DNA of 64,000 bases from Candidatus Woesearchaeota archaeon (GTDB lineage: Archaea > Nanobdellota > Nanobdellia > Woesearchaeales > UBA10216): contig JACPBX010000003.1 of NCBI GenBank assembly GCA_016180085.1, forward strand, positions 74,655 through 138,654. The letters run 5' to 3'. Positions 1-60,500 of this stretch are shown in pieces (position 1 is the first letter of the stretch; the number at the start of each line of letters is the position of its first letter). Under the pieces are notes generated by a model, which worked only from the letters and a program-made list of their open reading frames with translations, did no database searches and had not been told where the DNA came from. The position numbers and the translations under genes were made by a program.

Positions 1-474
1 TTCTGAATTGTCGCAATCGTAATAGACCGTTGCGTTCACGTCACTTTTCTGAATATTTGACGTATCAACTCCACTACAGCCGTCACATACTCTTTGCGGG
101 ACATCAACTCCTTCCTTGCAATTCGCTTCGATATCGCAACTGGCTTTATTGGCATCGTTCATGTTTTGGGGAATTGAGAAAGAATCACAATCATTTACCC
201 CACAACTCGAACCACAGCCATTCGAATCGTAATAGCAGTTGTCGAATGTTCCGTCATTGTTCCAGTCTAGGCAAACAAAGTCGGCAGAGGCACCAGCAAT
301 ACCGTTCACTTCAAAGGCTATGTCATCATCAGTCCAAATAACACCATCATCTAACCCTGCCCCATTCACAGCCCAATCATCATAATAGTCAATTATAGGT
401 AAAGCCACTGCAAAAAGTGGCAATAGTAACATAAGCAAAGAAAAGTTCAAAATACTAAAGGCTGCCTTGTTCAT
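1..474 (-). CDS. Partial (C-terminus beyond window start) secreted/membrane-anchored hypothetical protein, Asp/Cys/Gly/Asn-rich with N-terminal hydrophobic signal/anchor (MNKAAFSILNFSLLMLLLPLFAVALP...)
   Basis: Minus-strand frame open from ATG at 474..472 to position 1 with no stop (checked codon by codon); not in ORF track because it has no stop in the window; the opposing 30..341 + ORF is low-complexity and is rejected. Confidence 0.4.
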   Translation of the reverse strand, partial: MNKAAFSILNFSLLMLLLPLFAVALPIIDYYDDWAVNGAGLDDGVIWTDDDIAFEVNGIAGASADFVCLDWNNDGTFDNCYYDSNGCGSSCGVNDCDSFSIPQNMNDANKASCDIEANCKEGVDVPQRVCDGCSGVDTSNIQKSDVNATVYYDCDNSE

Positions 475-9723: not shown

Positions 9724-10776
9724 ATGAGGTTAAGCAAGAAAATGAGAATCAGGGCAGCAGTTCTTTACGGGCAGCACAAGCCTATGGTGGTAGAGGAGCT
9801 TGAAACTCCGGAGCTTGGCAGGGGCCAGGTTCTGGTGAAGGTCCTTTACAGCGGAATCTGCCAGACCCAGCTTAACGAGCTTAAGGGCGTCAAGGGCCCT
9901 GACAGCTTCCTGCCCCACCTGCTTGGCCATGAGGCATCTGGCATCGTTCAGGACATTGGCGGGGGCGTTACCAAGGTTAAGCCTGGTGATTATGTGGTGC
10001 TTTCATGGATGAAAGGGTCAGGGCTTGAAGTTCCTTCTTCGCAATACTCGCTTGGCGGGAAAAAGATAAATGCCGGAGCAGTCACGACTTTTCAAACGCA
10101 TTCTGTTGTTTCAGAAAACCGCATCACAAAAATTCCTGAAAAAGTGCCTGCCGACGTTGCCGCCCTTCTGGGCTGTGCAGTTCCTACAGGTGCGGGGATG
10201 GTCAGGAACACTCTTAAGGCCCAGCCCGGCAGCACTCTTGCGGTCTTTGGCTTGGGAGGAGTGGGCCTCAGTGCAGTGCTTTATGCCGCTTCGGTTGGCT
10301 GCGGAAAGATTATTGGCATTGACATCAGGAAGCAAAAGCTCGGCCTGGCGATGAAGCTGGGCGCAACCCACGCAATAGACGGCTCCGAAGGCAATGTGCT
10401 TGAGAAGATTCGGGAACTCACGCAGGGGCAGGGCGTTGATTTTGCAATAGAGTCCTCAGGCGTAAGGGAGGTCATGGAGCTTTCATTTGAGGCCATAAGG
10501 AATGGTGGCACTGCGGTCCTTGCAGGCAACATCAGGAAGGGAGAGAAAGTGGGCATTGACCCTTACGGCCTGATTTTTGGGAAGAAAATACTTGGGACGC
10601 ATGGAGGAGAAACCCATACTGACGAGGACATCCCGTTCTATGCCGGGCAGTACCTTGCCGGGAAGCTTAAGCTCGAAAAGCTCATCACCCACGTTTTCAC
10701 CCTTGACAAGGTCAATGACGCCTTTGCAGAGCTTGGCAAGGGAAACGTCGGCAGGGCTTTGCTAAGGCTGCACTGA
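9724..10776 (+). CDS. Zinc-binding alcohol/sugar dehydrogenase (MDR superfamily)
   Basis: 350 aa; GICQTQ...GHEASG (zinc ligands), GxGxxG Rossmann (VFGLGGVGL); alternative start at MRIRAAV (9742). Confidence 0.8.
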   Translation: MRLSKKMRIRAAVLYGQHKPMVVEELETPELGRGQVLVKVLYSGICQTQLNELKGVKGPDSFLPHLLGHEASGIVQDIGGGVTKVKPGDYVVLSWMKGSGLEVPSSQYSLGGKKINAGAVTTFQTHSVVSENRITKIPEKVPADVAALLGCAVPTGAGMVRNTLKAQPGSTLAVFGLGGVGLSAVLYAASVGCGKIIGIDIRKQKLGLAMKLGATHAIDGSEGNVLEKIRELTQGQGVDFAIESSGVREVMELSFEAIRNGGTAVLAGNIRKGEKVGIDPYGLIFGKKILGTHGGETHTDEDIPFYAGQYLAGKLKLEKLITHVFTLDKVNDAFAELGKGNVGRALLRLH

Positions 10777-11415: not shown

Positions 11416-11563
11416 GTTAATCCCCTCTTTCCTTTCCTCTCAGGTTTCTGCGGCAATAAAGGGCAATATATAGAGGACTTTGAATAACCGCTCATATTTA
11501 ATTTTTGTTTAAAGTCCTCTCAGCGTATCGCTGAGGGATGTCAGCTCTAAGCTGACATTCTCT

Positions 11564-11605
11564 TAGACAACTTTGCTATACGACGGGGTTAATCAAAGTT
11601 GTCTA
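11564..11605. promoter_or_regulatory. Perfect 12-bp inverted repeat TAGACAACTTTG-N18-CAAAGTTGTCTA followed by TATAAAT; candidate operator / divergent-promoter element
   Basis: Read directly from sequence (arms at 11564-11575 and 11594-11605); lies in the 260-bp non-coding gap between divergent HAD and aminotransferase genes; two shorter hairpins (ctcagcg-tat-cgctgag at about 11517-11533 and tcagc-tctaa-gctga at about 11541-11555) lie just upstream. Confidence 0.4.
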
Positions 11606-11678
11606 TAAATCTTATTTTGCATGCTTGCAACCTGTTTCACTCCCTAACTATCGAAAACTTTAAGTAAGGCTGCTCTGG

Positions 11679-27915: not shown

Positions 27916-30219
27916 TCAGCCGGCGTTATCCCGCAGCCAGGCGGCTGTCCTCAGCAGCCCTGCTTTGAGGCTGACCTTGGGTGAATAGCCAACCTCATTC
28001 TTAATCTTGGAAAGGTCAGGGCATCTTCTCCTTGGCTCGTCCTGCGGATAGTTTGCAGGGTAGCTTATCAGCTTTACGTGGACTTTGTTGCTGAAGACCT
28101 CTCCGGCTATTGTTTCTGCAAGGGCAAGCATGTTGATTTCCTCAGCGTCATTGCCAACATTGTAGACCTGGCCAGCCCTCCCGAGGAGCAGGACCTTGAA
28201 AAAGCCTGTGACTGCATCTGTTATGTAGCAGAATGCCCTTGTCTGGTTGCCCTTGTCATAAACAGTCAGCTCCCTGCCCTGAAGTCCCAGGCTCAGCATT
28301 GTTGGTATTACCCTGTAATCCGTGCTTTTCATGCCGGGGCCGTAAACGTTAAACGGCCTGACAATCCTTGCCGGGGTTTTGTGGACGCTGTAATGGGCCA
28401 TGCACATTGTTTCCCCCATGCGCTTTGATTCGTCATAGCAGGACCTCTCGCCGATTGAGGAAACATTGCCTTTGTACGTTTCCGGAGTTGGGATAAAGTT
28501 CGGGTCAGGGTCTCCGTAAATCTCGCTTGAGCTGAAGTACAGGAGGGCATTCACTTTTTTCTGCCCGGCCAGCTCAAGCGCGTTTTTAACCCCAAATATG
28601 GTTCCTTCTATTGTTTCTATGGGGTAGCGCTTGTAATATATGGGTGAGGCGACTCCTGCAGCACTGATTATGTAGTCTATGGGCTCCTCAATGGCAGCAG
28701 GAAATCTGACATCGTGCTTTACAAACTTTATGTGCTTGCTGTTGATTTCCTTCAGCATGTTGTTCCTGGAGTTCTGGCCTGTGATGTGGATGTCCAGGGA
28801 GATGACTTTGCACGGCTTCGCAAGAAACTTTCTGTTGAGGAGGTCAATTGTGGCAACAATGCAGCTGCCTATAAAGCCAGAGCCCCCTGTAATCAGGACA
28901 GTGCTTCCTTCGAGCATGCCAAGCATCCTGGCATCTTCCTTTATTGCCCCTGCAATTGTATCCAGGTCCTGCTCGACAATGCCATTGATAACCTGCGGCT
29001 CCGGAACAGGAATGATAAAGTTGCTGAAATCAGCGCACTTCTTCATTATCGGCTCGGCAAAGTTCCAGGCAAGTATGAGGATGTAGTCCGGCCTGTGCTT
29101 GTAAAGCTCGTCGAACGCAACAACAGGAATGTGCGTGCCCGGGGTGTGCATGCCCTGTTTCCACGGGCTGTCGTCAACAATGTAGTCAAGCACTTCGGGG
29201 CCAATCTGGAAATAATTGAGAAGCGTGTTGCCTTTTGCAGGTGCCCCATAGCCTACAATCTTCTTGCTCCTGGACTTCAGCTCTTTCAGCAGCTCTTTCA
29301 GTTTTACCTTGTTCTGCTCAATCTTCTTCGCGAACTCAGCGTACGTTGCCGCTTTTGAAAGGTGCCTGGCATCTTCCATTTCCGTGAACTTTCCCACAGA
29401 TTCCTCAATCTTGTATGGGCCGCCGGATTTCTGGGCGAACACCCTGAGAGAGCCGCCATGGGTGTCTGTTTCAGAAACATCAAACACCTCCATGCCAAGG
29501 CGGTGCAGCAATTTTGAGGCTGTCTTTGCAGTGAAATACGAGAGGTGCTCATGATAGATTAGGTCAAACAGGTTTTTTTCCAGCAGCTCGTAAAGGTAGT
29601 AGACCTCAATGATAAAAACGCCGTCGTCAGCAAGAAGCTCCTTTACGCCGCTGACAAAGCCATCAAGGTCATCAACGTGGGAGAAGACGCTCGTTGCTGT
29701 TATGGCTTTTGCCTTGCCATACTTTCTGGCAATGTCCTTGGCAATTATGGGTGTGAAAAAAACAGGCAATGTCTCGATGCCGCTTTTGGTTGCCATTGCA
29801 GCTATCTTCTCTGCCGGGTCAATGCCCAGAACCTTCATTCCCTTCTCTTTGAACGGGCGAAGCAATACCCCGTCGTTGCTGCCAACATCAACTACAAGGG
29901 AACTTGGCTTCAGCTTGAAGCGCTTAATAACCGTGTCTGCGAGGTCCCTGAAATGCTGCACAAAGACCGGGGAGGTTGAGGAAACGTAAACATAATCCCT
30001 GAAGAGGAGCTCTGGGGAAACAACGCTGGTAAGCTGGACAAAGCCGCAGTCGCTGCAGAAGGAAAGCCCAAGGGGGAAAAACTGCTCACTATCAGTCGGG
30101 CTCTTGATGAAGGCGTTGGCAGGCGGGGTGGAGCCCAAAGACAGCACATTAGCCAGCTTCCTGCCTGTGCATACCCTGCAGAATGTTTTTTCCTGTACAG
30201 ATTCAGCCATAAAAAACAC
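27916..30219 (-). CDS. Fusion protein: N-terminal TylCIII-type sugar C-methyltransferase + C-terminal UDP-glucuronate decarboxylase (UXS/ArnA-Cterm)-like extended SDR
   Basis: 767 aa; residues 1-400: CRVC...CSDCGF Zn-ribbon + DVGSNDG SAM motif + C-MT C-terminal domain; residues 410-767: LITGGSGFIGS, SSSEIYGDP, CYDESKRMGE (UXS YxxxK region). Confidence 0.75.
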   Translation of the reverse strand: MFFMAESVQEKTFCRVCTGRKLANVLSLGSTPPANAFIKSPTDSEQFFPLGLSFCSDCGFVQLTSVVSPELLFRDYVYVSSTSPVFVQHFRDLADTVIKRFKLKPSSLVVDVGSNDGVLLRPFKEKGMKVLGIDPAEKIAAMATKSGIETLPVFFTPIIAKDIARKYGKAKAITATSVFSHVDDLDGFVSGVKELLADDGVFIIEVYYLYELLEKNLFDLIYHEHLSYFTAKTASKLLHRLGMEVFDVSETDTHGGSLRVFAQKSGGPYKIEESVGKFTEMEDARHLSKAATYAEFAKKIEQNKVKLKELLKELKSRSKKIVGYGAPAKGNTLLNYFQIGPEVLDYIVDDSPWKQGMHTPGTHIPVVAFDELYKHRPDYILILAWNFAEPIMKKCADFSNFIIPVPEPQVINGIVEQDLDTIAGAIKEDARMLGMLEGSTVLITGGSGFIGSCIVATIDLLNRKFLAKPCKVISLDIHITGQNSRNNMLKEINSKHIKFVKHDVRFPAAIEEPIDYIISAAGVASPIYYKRYPIETIEGTIFGVKNALELAGQKKVNALLYFSSSEIYGDPDPNFIPTPETYKGNVSSIGERSCYDESKRMGETMCMAHYSVHKTPARIVRPFNVYGPGMKSTDYRVIPTMLSLGLQGRELTVYDKGNQTRAFCYITDAVTGFFKVLLLGRAGQVYNVGNDAEEINMLALAETIAGEVFSNKVHVKLISYPANYPQDEPRRRCPDLSKIKNEVGYSPKVSLKAGLLRTAAWLRDNAG

Positions 30220-30256: not shown

Positions 30257-30649
30257 CTATATCAGCCTTACCCTGACAGTGTCTTCCTCATAAGCCCGCT
30301 GCGACCTTGACTCGGTGGCGAGAGCCAGAAAAACAGAGTCCTCAACGAACCTCATGGCATGCACAGTCATGGGATGGCTTAGGACCATGTCGCCGGCCTC
30401 AATCACCACTGACTCCTTCTTGCCCTTGAGATTTCCATTGCTGTCAACCGGCTGCTCGGTGTACTCCATTTTGCCTGACAGGAGGTATGCGTAATGCCAG
30501 TCCTTCTTGTGGTAGTGGTTTGCGCGGACAGAGCCTTTCCTGCAGGTTATGAGCAGCACGCTTCTTATCACGGTTTTGCCGTCATCCAGTATTTTGGAAA
30601 TTTCCCCCCTTTCGTCAGCAAACTCAGGCCTGATTCTGAACACTTCCAA
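30257..30649 (-). CDS. Cupin-fold sugar-nucleotide isomerase/epimerase (FdtA/WxcM-C-terminal-like)
   Basis: 130 aa; RANHYHKK resembles the RGxHAHK motif of 3,4-ketoisomerases; the track start is TTG (30649); GTG at 30643 is an alternative. Confidence 0.5.
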   Translation of the reverse strand: MEVFRIRPEFADERGEISKILDDGKTVIRSVLLITCRKGSVRANHYHKKDWHYAYLLSGKMEYTEQPVDSNGNLKGKKESVVIEAGDMVLSHPMTVHAMRFVEDSVFLALATESRSQRAYEEDTVRVRLI

Positions 30650-30855
30650 CGCAGCTCACCGAATCTGGCAGAAAAGCAGGGCGTATTTAAAGTTTTGCGA
30701 ATTTAAGGCTCTGTCCTGAATCTTCAGTTTTGCGTGCTGCCGTGGTGTTTAGCAACACTCCCTTTCTCCCTCCTTCGCCTAAGCGTGGAGGGAGGAAAGT
30801 GACCTTGCGTAGCAAGGCACGGTAGCTAAAACGACTTTTAGGACAGAGTCCGAAT
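30650..30855. other. Highly structured 200-nt intergenic element (candidate small ncRNA or complex terminator/leader)
   Basis: Outer inverted repeat ctctgtcc (30709-30716) / ggacagag (30841-30848); GC-rich extended hairpin ctccctcc-tt-cgc-ctaa-gcg-t-ggagggag (30766-30794); further hairpins gctgccgtg/cacggtagc, gtgtt-tagc-aacac, ccttgc-gta-gcaagg; two TTTAAA boxes at 30686-30703. Confidence 0.35.
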
Positions 30856-31572
30856 CTAATCGAAGAATCTATATTTCAGCAGGTACCAGATGCTGATTAA
30901 GCCGTCCTTCATGCCGATTTTCTTTCCTGCGCCATACCCTCGGTGGCGGAAGTGGATGGGGACTTCAACAAACACCTTTCCCTTCTTTTTCAGCTTAATC
31001 ATCATTTCAAGGTCAAAAACAAAGCGGTTGGCCTTCATGCTGACTTCTTTTAAGTCGCTGAGCCGCATGAGCTTGTAGCACGGGTAAATGTCGGTCAGGT
31101 TATGGCTGAAGAGGAAATTCCAAAGCCACTTTATGGCCATGTTGCCGACGTAGTTCATGAAAAGGACGTTCTTTCTTTTGCCGAAAAGGTGCTGCTTCCT
31201 GCCCAGGAAGCGGGAGCCTATGACGACATCGGCAAGGCCTGATTCCATCAGTGGCAGCATATACCTGAAATCAGCAGGCTCGTATTCCAAATCGGCATCG
31301 TGGAAGACAATGTAATCGCCAGTGGCATGCTTTATGCCTTCTTTCAGGGCTGCGCCCTTGCCCGTGTTTCTTTGCAGAAAAACAGCCTTGACCCCATGAA
31401 TTTTCCTTATCAGGTCAGAAGTCCCGTCACTGGAGCCATCGTCAACGACAATTATTTCCCTGCCGTAATCGCCTATGTCAACCCCTTTGGTGTGCTCGAC
31501 TGCCTCAACAATGGTGTTCCTTTCATTGTATGCGGGAATGACTATGGACAATTTTTTTTGCGATTCTGCCAT
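30856..31572 (-). CDS. GT2 glycosyltransferase (Dpm1-like)
   Basis: 238 aa; LSIVIPAYNE, VVDDGSSDGT, HDADLEY motifs. Confidence 0.8.
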   Translation of the reverse strand: MAESQKKLSIVIPAYNERNTIVEAVEHTKGVDIGDYGREIIVVDDGSSDGTSDLIRKIHGVKAVFLQRNTGKGAALKEGIKHATGDYIVFHDADLEYEPADFRYMLPLMESGLADVVIGSRFLGRKQHLFGKRKNVLFMNYVGNMAIKWLWNFLFSHNLTDIYPCYKLMRLSDLKEVSMKANRFVFDLEMMIKLKKKGKVFVEVPIHFRHRGYGAGKKIGMKDGLISIWYLLKYRFFD

Positions 31573-58094: not shown

Positions 58095-60500
58095 TCACTT
58101 GCCTGCGCTTTTAACAATCTTGACTGTGGCAGCAGCGAACTCATTCACTTTCCCTTTTTCCACAAGGATTCCCTTCTTTAGCACCTCAGGGTGTGAGCCA
58201 ATCCTGAACGCAATTGCAGGCTTTCCGACAGCGTTTGCCTCGCAATTATGTATTGCACCTTGTAACGTTGTATAACTTCGGTCTTTGCTTACTTCTATGT
58301 TGCAAACAGGACCATTGTAGGCCTTGTCCTGTATGCGGCGGATTTGGGTGTAGAAGTACCTGTCATCAAGCCAGTAACGGTTATGTGCCCCTCGGGCTTT
58401 ATTAGTTTGGCACCTTTCTCCCAGGATGTTGCAAAAAGCATGTTTGTATTGTCCGGTCACGCTTAAATTGTACTCTATGCCTTTATCTCCCCTGTTGGCA
58501 ACATGAATATTGCAACCAATTCCTAATCGGAAAAGCACGTCCCGTATCTGTTCCGCTAATTTTTGTGAAGCTGTGCTAAATGAAACAATCGTATTGCCTT
58601 TGGCATCGTTGAAAACGCAGCCGTCTCCTCTCCACAACCCCTTGACAAGCTCTTTTAGTTTATGTGGTGGCAGCCTAAGGAACTCGGCAGGAATCTGTTT
58701 GTTTTTAGCACCAGTCTCTCCTAAAGCTGAGAAAAGCCTGTTGAGCAGTTGTGAGGTGAAGAATATGCGGCAGCCGTTCTTTTTTATCTCACGATAACCT
58801 TCTATATCAAAAATTCTTTTTACCAGTGTTAAGACGTCATTTTGGTATGTTTGCTCGCCTGCATGAAACGAAAAGATTAGTGTTGATTTTGTCTTTGAAG
58901 CGTGTCCTTCAGACAGGTAGTAGCCAAACAAGCGAAGGAAGTCACCATTAACTCTTACTTTGGTTGGTACAGAAATTTTTGCTCGTGGAACGTACCTCGC
59001 CTTTTTTAAATAAGCGCTGATTAAGAAACGTTTGGATAGGCTTAGTTGGTTGGGAATATTATTTAGGTAGCGATATATTGCATTCTTACTTAGGCGCAAT
59101 TTTTTCCCGATCGCTTCGTAGGTTTCTTTACCACGTTCGGTCTTCCTGCTGTATCTATAAAAAAGCCTGTCGTTTCCCTCAATTGTGCCGGGCAAATACC
59201 GTTTTAGATTTAAATATGTCTTATCAACTATTTTGTTGTTATACGGGTAAATAAGTACATCCTTCTCATTTAATTGTTCTGCTTCTATCCATTCAGGCCG
59301 ATACAGCAAATGGTACTTTTTTAAGCACTTATGATTTGGTTTGCAAGTTCTGTTTGACTTGCACATCTTTGTTCGTAGCGCATAAATCCTGTGCTCTGGA
59401 GTTATTTCGAGCGGTATGTTACAGCCATACACCCTGATGCTTTTTAACTTTCCTCTGTAAGCTCTTCTTGAGACAGCAGTAATAAGTTCTTCTCTGCCAA
59501 GGTGTGTAGTTACCTTATCTCCTGCTTTAAGGTTGCCTATTGCAGTATAGCCGTCATAGCATTTAATCAGGGATTTTGGCGTAAGACAAAGTGGAATATT
59601 GAACCCTTCCCACATGCTTGCAGTCACATATGCATCGCATGCGCCGTAGTAAGCTGGCAGTTCTTTGTCAGCAACAAATCCCGTGAATGCCACTCCTCCG
59701 ATTTCCGCAGCCGTTTTTTGCAGCTGCCTTGAATATTTCGGAAAGGTATGCTTTCCGACAACAACCAGGGTTGCGGCAGGGATTTTCTCTTTTACCAGCT
59801 TAAACGCCTGAAGCAGCAGGTGAACTCCTTTATGGGGTGATATCCTTCCAACGTATAACAGCACCGGCTTCCTCAGGTTGTGTTTTTTCACAACCGCAGC
59901 AATCTCTTTTTTATATTTCGCAGCCGCATTTTTATTGAACCTTTTTGTGTCTATCTTCACATACTTGACCTGGCTGTTGAGGCCGGTTTCCTTTTTCAGC
60001 TCGCTGCCGCAGAACTTGCTTATCGATATTGCCGCATCAGCATTCTTAACGGTTATTTTTGTGAATGCAGCGAATATCTTCATGTAAACCCTCTCAAAAA
60101 ACCCGTCAAAAAGCTGCGGGTAGGCAACTCCAACATCATAATAAACGTATTTCAGCCTCTGCCCCATTCTTTTCCTTGCCAGCATCGCAGGCAATGTCAT
60201 CGGGTAAAGAAAGCTGATTGCCTTATCAAACCCGCTCAGCCTGTTGACAATTCTTATTACCTTCGCAGCATCAAGGAAGAAGAGTAATCTGTAAATTCTC
60301 TCCAGCAGCGGCTGCTTTGGCATTCCCAGCACTTCAACAGCTATGCCTTTCTTTTGCAGCTGCAGCGTATCAAAATCGGTTTTGAAAGTTATTACTGTAA
60401 CATCATTCTTGCCTGCTGCCAGCTCTGTCGCTTCATTGTAAACTACCCTGTCAGGACCGGAGAACTTCGAGAAGGTTGGAGTGAGTATTGCGATGTTCAT
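58095..60500 (-). CDS. GT4 (group 1) glycosyltransferase interrupted by a 448-aa intein; extein = residues 1-304 + 753-801 (353 aa)
   Basis: ATG 60500..60498 verified; extein junction ...SMWEGFNIPL | CEANAVGKPAIAF... reconstitutes the GT4 E-X7-E motif (compare EGFGYTAAEAAAMGKPIVAS in the 62955 gene). Confidence 0.85.
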   Translation of the reverse strand: MNIAILTPTFSKFSGPDRVVYNEATELAAGKNDVTVITFKTDFDTLQLQKKGIAVEVLGMPKQPLLERIYRLLFFLDAAKVIRIVNRLSGFDKAISFLYPMTLPAMLARKRMGQRLKYVYYDVGVAYPQLFDGFFERVYMKIFAAFTKITVKNADAAISISKFCGSELKKETGLNSQVKYVKIDTKRFNKNAAAKYKKEIAAVVKKHNLRKPVLLYVGRISPHKGVHLLLQAFKLVKEKIPAATLVVVGKHTFPKYSRQLQKTAAEIGGVAFTGFVADKELPAYYGACDAYVTASMWEGFNIPLCLTPKSLIKCYDGYTAIGNLKAGDKVTTHLGREELITAVSRRAYRGKLKSIRVYGCNIPLEITPEHRIYALRTKMCKSNRTCKPNHKCLKKYHLLYRPEWIEAEQLNEKDVLIYPYNNKIVDKTYLNLKRYLPGTIEGNDRLFYRYSRKTERGKETYEAIGKKLRLSKNAIYRYLNNIPNQLSLSKRFLISAYLKKARYVPRAKISVPTKVRVNGDFLRLFGYYLSEGHASKTKSTLIFSFHAGEQTYQNDVLTLVKRIFDIEGYREIKKNGCRIFFTSQLLNRLFSALGETGAKNKQIPAEFLRLPPHKLKELVKGLWRGDGCVFNDAKGNTIVSFSTASQKLAEQIRDVLFRLGIGCNIHVANRGDKGIEYNLSVTGQYKHAFCNILGERCQTNKARGAHNRYWLDDRYFYTQIRRIQDKAYNGPVCNIEVSKDRSYTTLQGAIHNCEANAVGKPAIAFRIGSHPEVLKKGILVEKGKVNEFAAATVKIVKSAGK
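58245..59588 (-). mobile_element. Class-1 intein with nested LAGLIDADG homing endonuclease
   Basis: Block A CLTPKSLIKCYDG (Cys1 codon 59588..59586 verified as TGT), block B LEITPEHRIYAL, LAGLIDADG motifs LRLFGYYLSEGHA and LVKGLWRGDGCV, block F VCNIEVSKDRSY, block G GAIHN followed by the +1 Cys. Confidence 0.8.

Follow-up and report, generated by a model that had tools for sequence, protein, structure and literature searches.

MITEs have been found in 20% of archaeal genomes, and one genome of the Woesearchaeota is among the densest of them, with 105 per Mb (PMC11602168). ISfinder holds two MITEs assigned to the IS6 family, MITEBth2 and MITEHarch3, the latter under an archaeal-style name (PMC6807381). 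The terminal consensus of the IS6 family is GGTTCTGTTGCAAA, which hardly varies at G1, G2 and G7 and varies most at positions 3-4 (PMC6807381); the end motif of IS6/IS26 has also been given as 'GG...cTGTt...caaa', and the archaeal members keep the GG tip and G7 and have no G10 (PMC6807381; PMC7986276). An ISL3 end, that of ISArsp7, has been described with the inverted repeat GGCTCTTCGCGG... and an 8-bp direct repeat (PMC6305408). We describe here a woesearchaeal locus with a 145-bp palindromic element whose ends resemble those of the IS6 family. We give about an even chance to the reading of this element as a solitary, IS6-like, non-autonomous MITE, solitary in that one copy was seen in the window (by which we mean the whole stretch of DNA analysed, 64,000 nucleotides long) and in about 0.9 Mb of related contigs.

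The cupin protein encoded beside the element is identical to the NCBI protein HYU16_00680 of a Candidatus Woesearchaeota archaeon. The host is thus an archaeon, and archaeal rules apply, with BRE/TATA promoters and oligo-T termination. The window as a whole is one large glycan-biosynthesis island, holding many GT2, GT4 and PMT_2-like transferases together with sugar aminotransferases, epimerases, C-methyltransferases and a flippase. From the stop codon of a GT2 glycosyltransferase gene (TAG, 30858-30856) to the start of the cupin gene, which is preceded by a Shine-Dalgarno-like GGTGA at 30660-30656, runs a spacer of 206 nt (30650-30855). The next two gaps in the same string of genes measure 37 and 6 nt, and in this respect the original prediction of an unusually long spacer was right. 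It had also described the gap as dense in hairpins and as holding nested inverted repeats. The outer arms, the GC-rich hairpin and the further hairpins could all be located by coordinates (Table 1), and the structure is real, although the structured part is an element of 145 nt, not the whole gap.

Table 1. Positions in the 64-kb window of the element, its ends and flanking repeats, and the neighbouring promoter and genes
Feature	Positions	Strand	Remarks
Element	30707-30851	unassigned (.)	145-bp nested palindrome; basis: fold, helix coordinates, absence from syntenic relatives
Closing stem, 5' half	30707-30744	+	P1 30707-20, P2 30724-32, P3 30736-44
Closing stem, 3' half	30818-30850	+	P3 30818-26, P2 30827-34, P1 30837-50
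Three junction hairpins	30745-30817	+	30745-58 (5 bp), 30759-30802 (GC-rich, 17 bp in total), 30803-17 (6 bp)
Terminal inverted repeat, promoter side	30707-30716	+	GGCTCTGTCC (on the - strand ...GGACAGAGCC); first 8 nt equal the IS6100 terminus
Terminal inverted repeat, GT2 side	30841-30851	-	reads GGACTCTGTCC; has one A more than the other arm
Possible target-site duplication, copy 1	30852-30859	-	TTAGATTC; includes the stop codon TAG of GT2
Possible target-site duplication, copy 2	30699-30706	-	TTAAATTC; alternatively part of an older second TATA-like box
Predicted cupin promoter, outside the element	30665-30699	-	BRE-like CGCAAAAC 30699-30692, TATA box TTTAAATA 30691-30684, initially transcribed block to CTGCCAG
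GT2 glycosyltransferase, 238 aa	30856-31572	-	PF00535, E = 6e-34; upstream gene
Cupin, 130 aa	30257-30649	-	TTG start at 30649; N-terminus aligns with homologues; downstream gene

The element has the architecture of a four-way junction, made of an interrupted closing stem of about 31 bp and three abutting hairpins, which adjoin each other and the closing stem without any unpaired linker. The outer arms (P1) pair over 14 bp on the + strand, two G.U pairs counted, around the perfect core CTCTGTCCT/AGGACAGAG, and the inner segments of the stem form helices of 9 bp and 6 bp. The core of the GC-rich hairpin pairs 30763-73 with 30787-97 (TTTCTCCCTCC/GGAGGGAGGAA). In all, the + strand fold contains 59 pairs, of which five are G.U, and the - strand fold contains 54 bp.

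This structure stands far apart from shuffled controls on both strands. As RNA, the 144-nt core has a folding energy of -73.7 kcal/mol on the + strand (z -7.7) and of -61.9 kcal/mol on the - strand (z -5.7), and 0 of 200 shuffles were as stable; folded as DNA, the same core gives z scores of -8.3 and -7.1. The inner 72 nt alone reach -4.4 (+) and -3.1 (-). When the 64-kb window was scanned with 150-nt sliding folds, the element came first among about 3,200 such stretches of the + strand (GC-corrected z -5.5); its GC content is 53%. The open reading frames lying wholly within it, of 22-42 aa, are spurious, and none is credible. A second hairpin cluster of the window was considered as a replication origin and dropped, its neighbours being a HAD hydrolase and an aminotransferase gene.

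We compared the spacer with the described classes of structured RNA and of palindromic DNA. The Rfam scan that had been proposed for it gave no match to the element: Rfam 15 at gathering thresholds matched nothing in the whole window, and at E<=10 over 30400-31100 (701 nt) there was only a spurious 18-nt match, outside the element. ARAGORN found no tRNA or tmRNA. An archaeal C/D-box sRNA was rejected for want of a C box (RUGAUGA; the D box is CUGA) on either strand, an H/ACA sRNA for want of an ACA box after the stem, and a hammerhead ribozyme because CUGAAGA is present, but no GAAA, helix II context or Rfam match. The element is like an integron attC site in being an imperfect palindrome just past a stop codon, and attC sites sometimes have a branched centre; it is unlike one in having no R'/R'' core sites (GTTRRRY/RYYYAAC) on either strand and no integron context, and its host is archaeal. 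An archaeal intrinsic terminator needs a run of at least five T, and the longest runs at 30650-30860 are of four on both strands, in keeping with the earlier remark that this is no simple T-tract terminator. The spacer is not a riboswitch, a leader or a known RNA. With no Rfam family, tRNA-like gene, C/D box, attC site or ribozyme core in it, we treat an RNA-level function as possible but unsupported.

The nearby regulatory signal of note is a strongly conserved BRE/TATA block ahead of the cupin gene. Its predicted TATA box stands about 34 nt from the TTG start codon, and the promoter block AAACTTTAAATA, after which come a T-rich stretch and CTGCCAG, is found at the same distance from the cupin start in all of the close relatives examined (loci L006, L008, L010/L011, L016, L017, L018, L021, L217, L219 and L221). 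Two TTTAAA boxes had been noted in the spacer; one is exact, and is this TATA box, but the other reads TTAAAT (30706-30701). Over the 30 nt at 30694-30665, identity with L010/L011/L012 is 100%, whereas the genes flanking this 30-mer are only 72% and 69% identical to theirs at the DNA level. The breaks that Logan contigs show beside the element were considered as a repeat signature and rejected as such, because this 30-mer is common to a co-occurring relative, which accounts for the breaks. Since the BRE/TATA promoter lies between the element and the start codon, the element would not be part of the cupin 5' UTR. A role as riboswitch or leader of the cupin operon is thus not supported, as judged from a predicted and conserved promoter, and the suggestion of a cis-regulatory leader of the cupin/C-MT-UXS operon does not survive the comparison with relatives, where the same promoter serves genes with no such element upstream.

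Six syntenic relatives do not have the element, and in these the GT2 stop codon lies 3-40 nt from the promoter. In L010/L011, L017 and L018 the stop codon is a TAA that overlaps the promoter block (GACTAAAACTTTAAATACGCC; GAC TAA AACTTTAAATACGCC), and in L008, L217 and L221 the distance from the stop codon to the TATA box is 9-40 nt; L221 has two tandem TATA-like boxes. Across 75 loci, nearly all of the co-directional upstream gaps are shorter than 130 nt. L006 has an unrelated insert of 590 nt at the same site, carrying a small reverse ORF. The absence of the element from syntenic relatives, with their stop codons near the promoter, points to a lineage-specific insertion. When the element and one copy of the flanking repeat are removed in silico, what is left is GAT TAG ATTCGCAAAAC TTTAAATA, a spacer like those of the relatives. 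No relative of the element was found by blastn, nhmmer or covariance model in about 0.9 Mb of related contigs. The covariance model, built from the + strand fold and run on the window and 86 related loci (0.9 Mb), matched only the element itself, with no match outside the window at E<=10. With nothing related to it in these contigs, the element is not a conserved feature of the cupin operon.

The ends of the element resemble those of the IS6 family. The tips read GGCTCTGT...ACAGAGCC, and the terminal inverted repeats (GGCTCTGTCCTGAA on the + strand, GG(A)CTCTGTCCTAAA on the - strand) agree at 13/14 positions, with a single indel. Measured against the IS6 motif, which belongs to a terminal repeat of 14-20 bp, they have the GG tip, G7, CTGT at 5-8 and AA(A) at 12-14, and G10 is absent. 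GG, G7 and CTGT are all present on the + strand arm, while the second arm conforms only without its inserted A, and through this indel G7 holds at one end only; positions 11-14 are tgAA in one arm and tAAA in the other. Agreement with IS6100 is at 10/14 and 11/14 positions for the two arms, the 8 nt of the tip being identical at both ends. For this comparison the ends of IS6100 are those in plasmid pTET3, where GGCTCTGTTGCAAA precedes the annotated transposase gene by 47 nt and the 880-bp element ends in TTTGCAACAGAGCC.

The tips are abutted by the 8-mers TTAGATTC and TTAAATTC, which match at 7/8 positions (p = 6.5e-4 in a simulation of abutting repeats with local base composition). Eight base pairs is the length of the IS6 target duplication, here with one mismatch, and the pair may be such a duplication. 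The right copy is perhaps part of an older TATA-like box, though: it lies within the 16 nt after the element, which are a 75% tandem copy of the promoter core, and given also the tandem TATA-like boxes of L221, the apparent duplication could be older sequence.

Some further small repeats were seen around the site. The sequence CGCAAAACT occurs both within the 3' arm and in the promoter, AGATTCGG flanks the element and the promoter, and ACAGAGCC occurs 10 nt upstream of the same promoter in L006, where it could be the remnant of a related insertion at the same site. Each of these coincidences has a p of about 0.001-0.02 and was found post hoc.

The original prediction offered three readings of the spacer, a small RNA, a leader and a MITE, and the last is the best supported, by the empty sites, the IS6-type terminal inverted repeats and the abutting 7/8 repeat. 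As to the property that defines MITEs, several copies per genome with different flanks, neither the window nor the 0.9 Mb or so from relatives yielded a second copy. The element is of MITE size at 145 bp, intergenic and without a transposase, its folds as DNA and as RNA lie far below those of shuffled sequences, and its presence is polymorphic, the six syntenic relatives being without it. Against this reading, the deletion of an IS would leave an interior far less self-complementary than this one, and the likeness to IS6 extends over only 8-11 nt.

If the element is an IS6-like MITE, it would have inserted, in the ancestor of this Woesearchaeota lineage, into the short stretch that separated the stop codon of GT2 from the cupin BRE/TATA promoter. 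An IS6-like DDE transposase acting in trans would have recognised the GGCTCTGT... termini; staggered cuts 8 bp apart in the target TTAGATTC would have been repaired with duplication of the 8-mer, and the route expected of the IS6 family would be a replicative cointegrate, then resolution by recombination. Both the stop codon, which lies within the left duplicate, and the promoter, which starts from the last base of the right duplicate, would have been kept, and with neither disrupted the insertion could persist. The dense hairpins would in that case be a property of the element's DNA, arising from its terminal repeats and internal palindromes. RNA reading through from GT2 would fold as a very stable four-way junction, and this junction may incidentally stabilise or insulate the 3' end of GT2, or shield the cupin promoter from read-through.

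Searches were made for further copies of the element and for a parent insertion sequence. By blastn there was no second copy in the 64-kb window and none in the phage and plasmid collections, and word scans of IMG/VR gave chance matches only, inside coding regions. Logan contigs from at least six samples run unbroken through the element, which would argue against other near-identical copies in those communities. A Pfam scan found a transposase or integrase domain in 0 of the 48 window ORFs that it covered, and no IS with the same ends was found in about 1 Mb (the window and related loci); a candidate pair of ends in L032/L036 was rejected as coding sequence. In the genome collection, the matches listed for the pattern CTCTGTCCTRN{105,135}YAGGACAGAG were those of a palindromic repeat of about 144 bp in the Rhizobiales.

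The element can be set beside several described systems. With the MITEs of IS6/IS26 and with IS6100 it shares the GG tips, G7, CTGT at 5-8 and the A-run at 12-14, as well as a small size, the lack of a transposase gene and an abutting 8-bp repeat. It differs from them in being single-copy as seen, with no partner transposase found in the window or the related loci, in being off consensus at positions 9-12, in the 1-nt indel of one arm, in an interior that is wholly nested palindrome, and in an 8-bp duplication that has one mismatch and an alternative explanation. MITEBth2 and MITEHarch3 are likened to it by family, not by their own sequences. The ends of ISL3 have the GGCTCT tip and the same length of duplication, but T instead of G at position 7, and agree with the element at 6/8 of the first nucleotides, compared to 8/8 for IS6100.

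The Correia/NEMIS, ERIC, RUP and REP/BIME repeats are bacterial, transcribed, hairpin-forming and multi-copy by definition. Like the element, they are about 100-160 bp long, are intergenic near stop codons or promoters and form a stable hairpin over their whole length if co-transcribed; unlike it, they are bacterial where its host is a DPANN archaeon, and they have no sequence similarity to it. The Rhizobiales repeat, found in Mesorhizobium and its relatives, is of the same length class, also has long terminal complementarity, and shares with the element the 10-mer CTCTGTCCTG, which, with its complement, stands close to both ends. The covariance model scored this repeat at 18-36 bits, at loci that had been chosen by the shared 10-mer, and the scores are thus biased by the shared ends and by generic palindromy and do not speak for homology. 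The repeat has no other blastn similarity to the element, a GC content of 60-68% as against 53%, and another internal architecture, and we regard the likeness as coincidence. A literature search on the terminal sequence of the element and on the Rhizobiales repeat returned only unrelated primer matches.

We considered the possibility that the palindrome is of local origin, neither mobile nor functional, and arose by template switching or by inverted or tandem duplication of the spacer and promoter-proximal sequence. Several of the repeats involve the 3' arm, such as CGCAAAACT, shared by the arm and the promoter; the tandem copy of the promoter core after the element, the occurrence of ACAGAGCC upstream of the same promoter in L006, and an inner ACGCAAAACT identical to the promoter block of L006/L016 would all fit such an origin, as would a site that is generally variable, with its unrelated 590-nt insert in L006. 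However, local-alignment scores against the spacers of relatives are not above those of shuffled controls, except marginally for L018, and a stretch of 300 nt can almost be expected to hold exact 8-9-nt repeats by chance. Several separate events would have to be assumed for the inner hairpins, which are three, independent and perfect, and the IS6-type tips and the abutting 8-bp repeat would be left unexplained. We consider a local origin unlikely.

An unlikely explanation, in our estimate, is a lineage-specific, cis-acting RNA on the GT2 transcript, that is on the - strand, serving as a stabiliser (intercistronic or of the 3' end), as a roadblock, or as an insulator that keeps GT2 read-through from the cupin promoter, and under selection whatever its origin. 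The element starts 5 nt past the GT2 stop codon, so GT2 transcripts must enter it, and the - strand folds well below its shuffled controls, as given above. In most relatives the last GT2 codons contain a T6-7 run, a plausible archaeal terminator, where the window has TTCTTC, so that read-through into the element would be likelier. Yet L018 and L217 have neither the T-run nor the element, the relatives in general manage without it, and no T-tract follows the structure. The near-pairs also point the other way: 5/5 are A.C in the - strand RNA but G.U in that of the + strand, and selection on the - strand would leave the reverse.

The same asymmetry bears on a further reading, which we think improbable: that the element is a small non-coding RNA gene in its own right, of a new class, most likely encoded on the + strand and antisense to the string of genes. 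The + strand has the fuller and more stable fold, with its 59 bp against 54, the four-way junction is compact, and there are TATA-like boxes just upstream on that strand. The A-rich BRE, however, is on the cupin side, and with its spacing a + strand transcript would begin within the 5' arm; no T-tract is found on the + strand, helices abutting without linkers are unusual for natural RNA junctions, and the 5:0 asymmetry of G.U pairs has a two-sided p of only 0.06. With no Rfam match and no homologue in the 0.9 Mb or so from relatives, each at E<=10, and with no suitably placed promoter of its own, the structured small RNA of the original prediction finds no support. There is likewise only a slim chance that the element represents a new Woesearchaeota four-way-junction RNA with a stem of about 31 bp, whether as a + strand antisense transcript or as an IS6-type MITE exapted at the RNA level as an insulator or stabiliser from GT2 to the cupin promoter. 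If a new RNA were the true reading, selection on the + strand RNA would account for the one-sided G.U pattern.

It is very improbable that the element is a riboswitch or leader for the cupin/C-MT-UXS operon or that it intrinsically terminates GT2, for only the intergenic position and the strong structure favour this, whereas the promoter lies downstream of the element, no riboswitch or leader of Rfam matches it, and neither strand offers the run of at least five T that archaeal oligo-T termination uses.

The solitary IS6-like MITE would, if confirmed, be a concrete annotated example of an IS6-type MITE in a DPANN (Woesearchaeota) genome. Compared to known MITEs, only its solitary state and an interior that is nested palindrome throughout would set it apart. 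The element lies in a surface-glycan island in which gene order and spacers vary between co-occurring strains, and in a group whose genomes are small and for one of whose members, within the Woesearchaeota, a high density of MITEs has been reported (PMC11602168). A defined example, together with the comparison to empty sites, would help annotation and help to avoid mistaking such elements for regulatory RNAs.

Hairpin-dense DNA occurs a second time in the window, in a spacer between divergent HAD-hydrolase and aminotransferase genes that ranks second in the fold scan across the whole window (RNA fold z of -5.2). This spacer holds four hairpins in tandem, two of which belong to a small hairpin family in which an arm AGAGRACTTTGA is followed by a loop of 16-25 nt and then by TCAAAGTYCTCT, with conservation confined to the arms and none in the loops. 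Five matches to the family were found in the 0.92 Mb searched, and its members may be palindromes to which a protein binds, or else REP-like repeats. The hairpins of this spacer are unrelated in sequence to the element at 30.7 kb, the 145-bp nested palindrome between the stop codon of the glycosyltransferase gene GT2 and the promoter of the cupin gene.

A palindromic repeat of about 144 bp is abundant in Mesorhizobium and other Rhizobiales, among the matches listed (L096-L214) from the genome-collection scan with the arm-core 10-mers of the element. It reads GCCCCCCTCTGTCCTGCCGGACATCTCCCCC...GGGGGAGATGTCCGGCAGGACAGAGGGGGGC and is present in several copies per genome among these same matches. 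The repeat matched no Rfam family, and a text search of a collection of papers found no mention of it. Its only link to the element of the window is one common 10-mer.

Coordinates of features in the window and in related or compared loci
Feature	Position	Strand	Sequence or remark
Second hairpin-dense spacer	window 11416-11678		
Hairpin family, further sites	L008 12721-12810; L036 about 240-329		Woesearchaeota-like contigs, contexts unrelated
Promoter-like motif	window 11654-11671; window 30684-30699		(C)GMAAAACTTTAARTA
C-methyltransferase-UXS-like fusion	window 27916-30219		767 aa
Unfused, adjacent genes	L218 1473-3793; L221 5412-7741		418-421 + 355 aa
Shared promoter and initially transcribed block	window 30665-30694; L010 about 9937-9966; also L011, L012		AACTTTAAATACGCCCTGCTTTTCTGCCAG
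Unrelated 590-nt insert at the GT2-cupin site of one relative	L006 9409-10000; L007 3162-3753		
Intein-interrupted GT4/GT1 glycosyltransferase, 801 aa	window 58095-60500	-	domain matches
Rhizobiales repeat, example copies	L109 264-407; L109 4164-4309		about 144 bp

In the window, a C-methyltransferase and a UXS-like NAD-dependent epimerase/dehydratase are fused into one protein, as they also are in several relatives, and in two related loci the same two proteins are encoded by separate neighboring genes; within this clade, the two genes have undergone either fusion or fission. In the intein-bearing glycosyltransferase, the Glycos_transf_1 domain is split, and the protein also contains Hint_2 at aa 305-368 and the homing endonuclease domain LAGLIDADG_3 at aa 617-694. 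This is the sole selfish element recognised among the proteins of the window, and the intein-bearing product is also found in Logan contigs. A GT4/GT1 glycosyltransferase is an uncommon host protein for an intein.

Two island genes with no relation to each other, the aminotransferase gene (11679) and the cupin gene (30649), each have the promoter-like motif in front of them, which may be the local BRE/TATA consensus. At the cupin promoter, the 30-nt shared block is 100% identical between the window genome and the co-occurring relative of the HYU17 type, with DNA identity beside it of 72% in GT2 and 69% in cupin for the same pair, reflecting either very strong constraint or recent exchange. Because the block is common to both genomes, the Logan contigs break there.

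We also compared the end of GT2 (window 30859-30870) with L010, L008, L006, L017 and L221. The final codons, Arg-Phe-Phe-Asp, contain a run of 6-7 T in most relatives, plausibly an archaeal terminator within the coding end. In the window these codons include TTC TTC, and thus the T-run is missing where the element is present; the link between the two is weak, however, since the related loci L018 and L217 have neither the run nor the element.

Within the 590-nt insert of one relative lies a small ORF on the reverse strand; its N-terminus is hydrophobic and lipoprotein-like, and it has its own TATA-like promoter. About 10 nt 5' of the cupin promoter, L006 has ACAGAGCC and L016 (about 2000-2330) has ACCGAGCC, each including an 8-mer identical to the terminus of the element in the window. 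The GT2-cupin site appears to be a hot spot for rearrangement.
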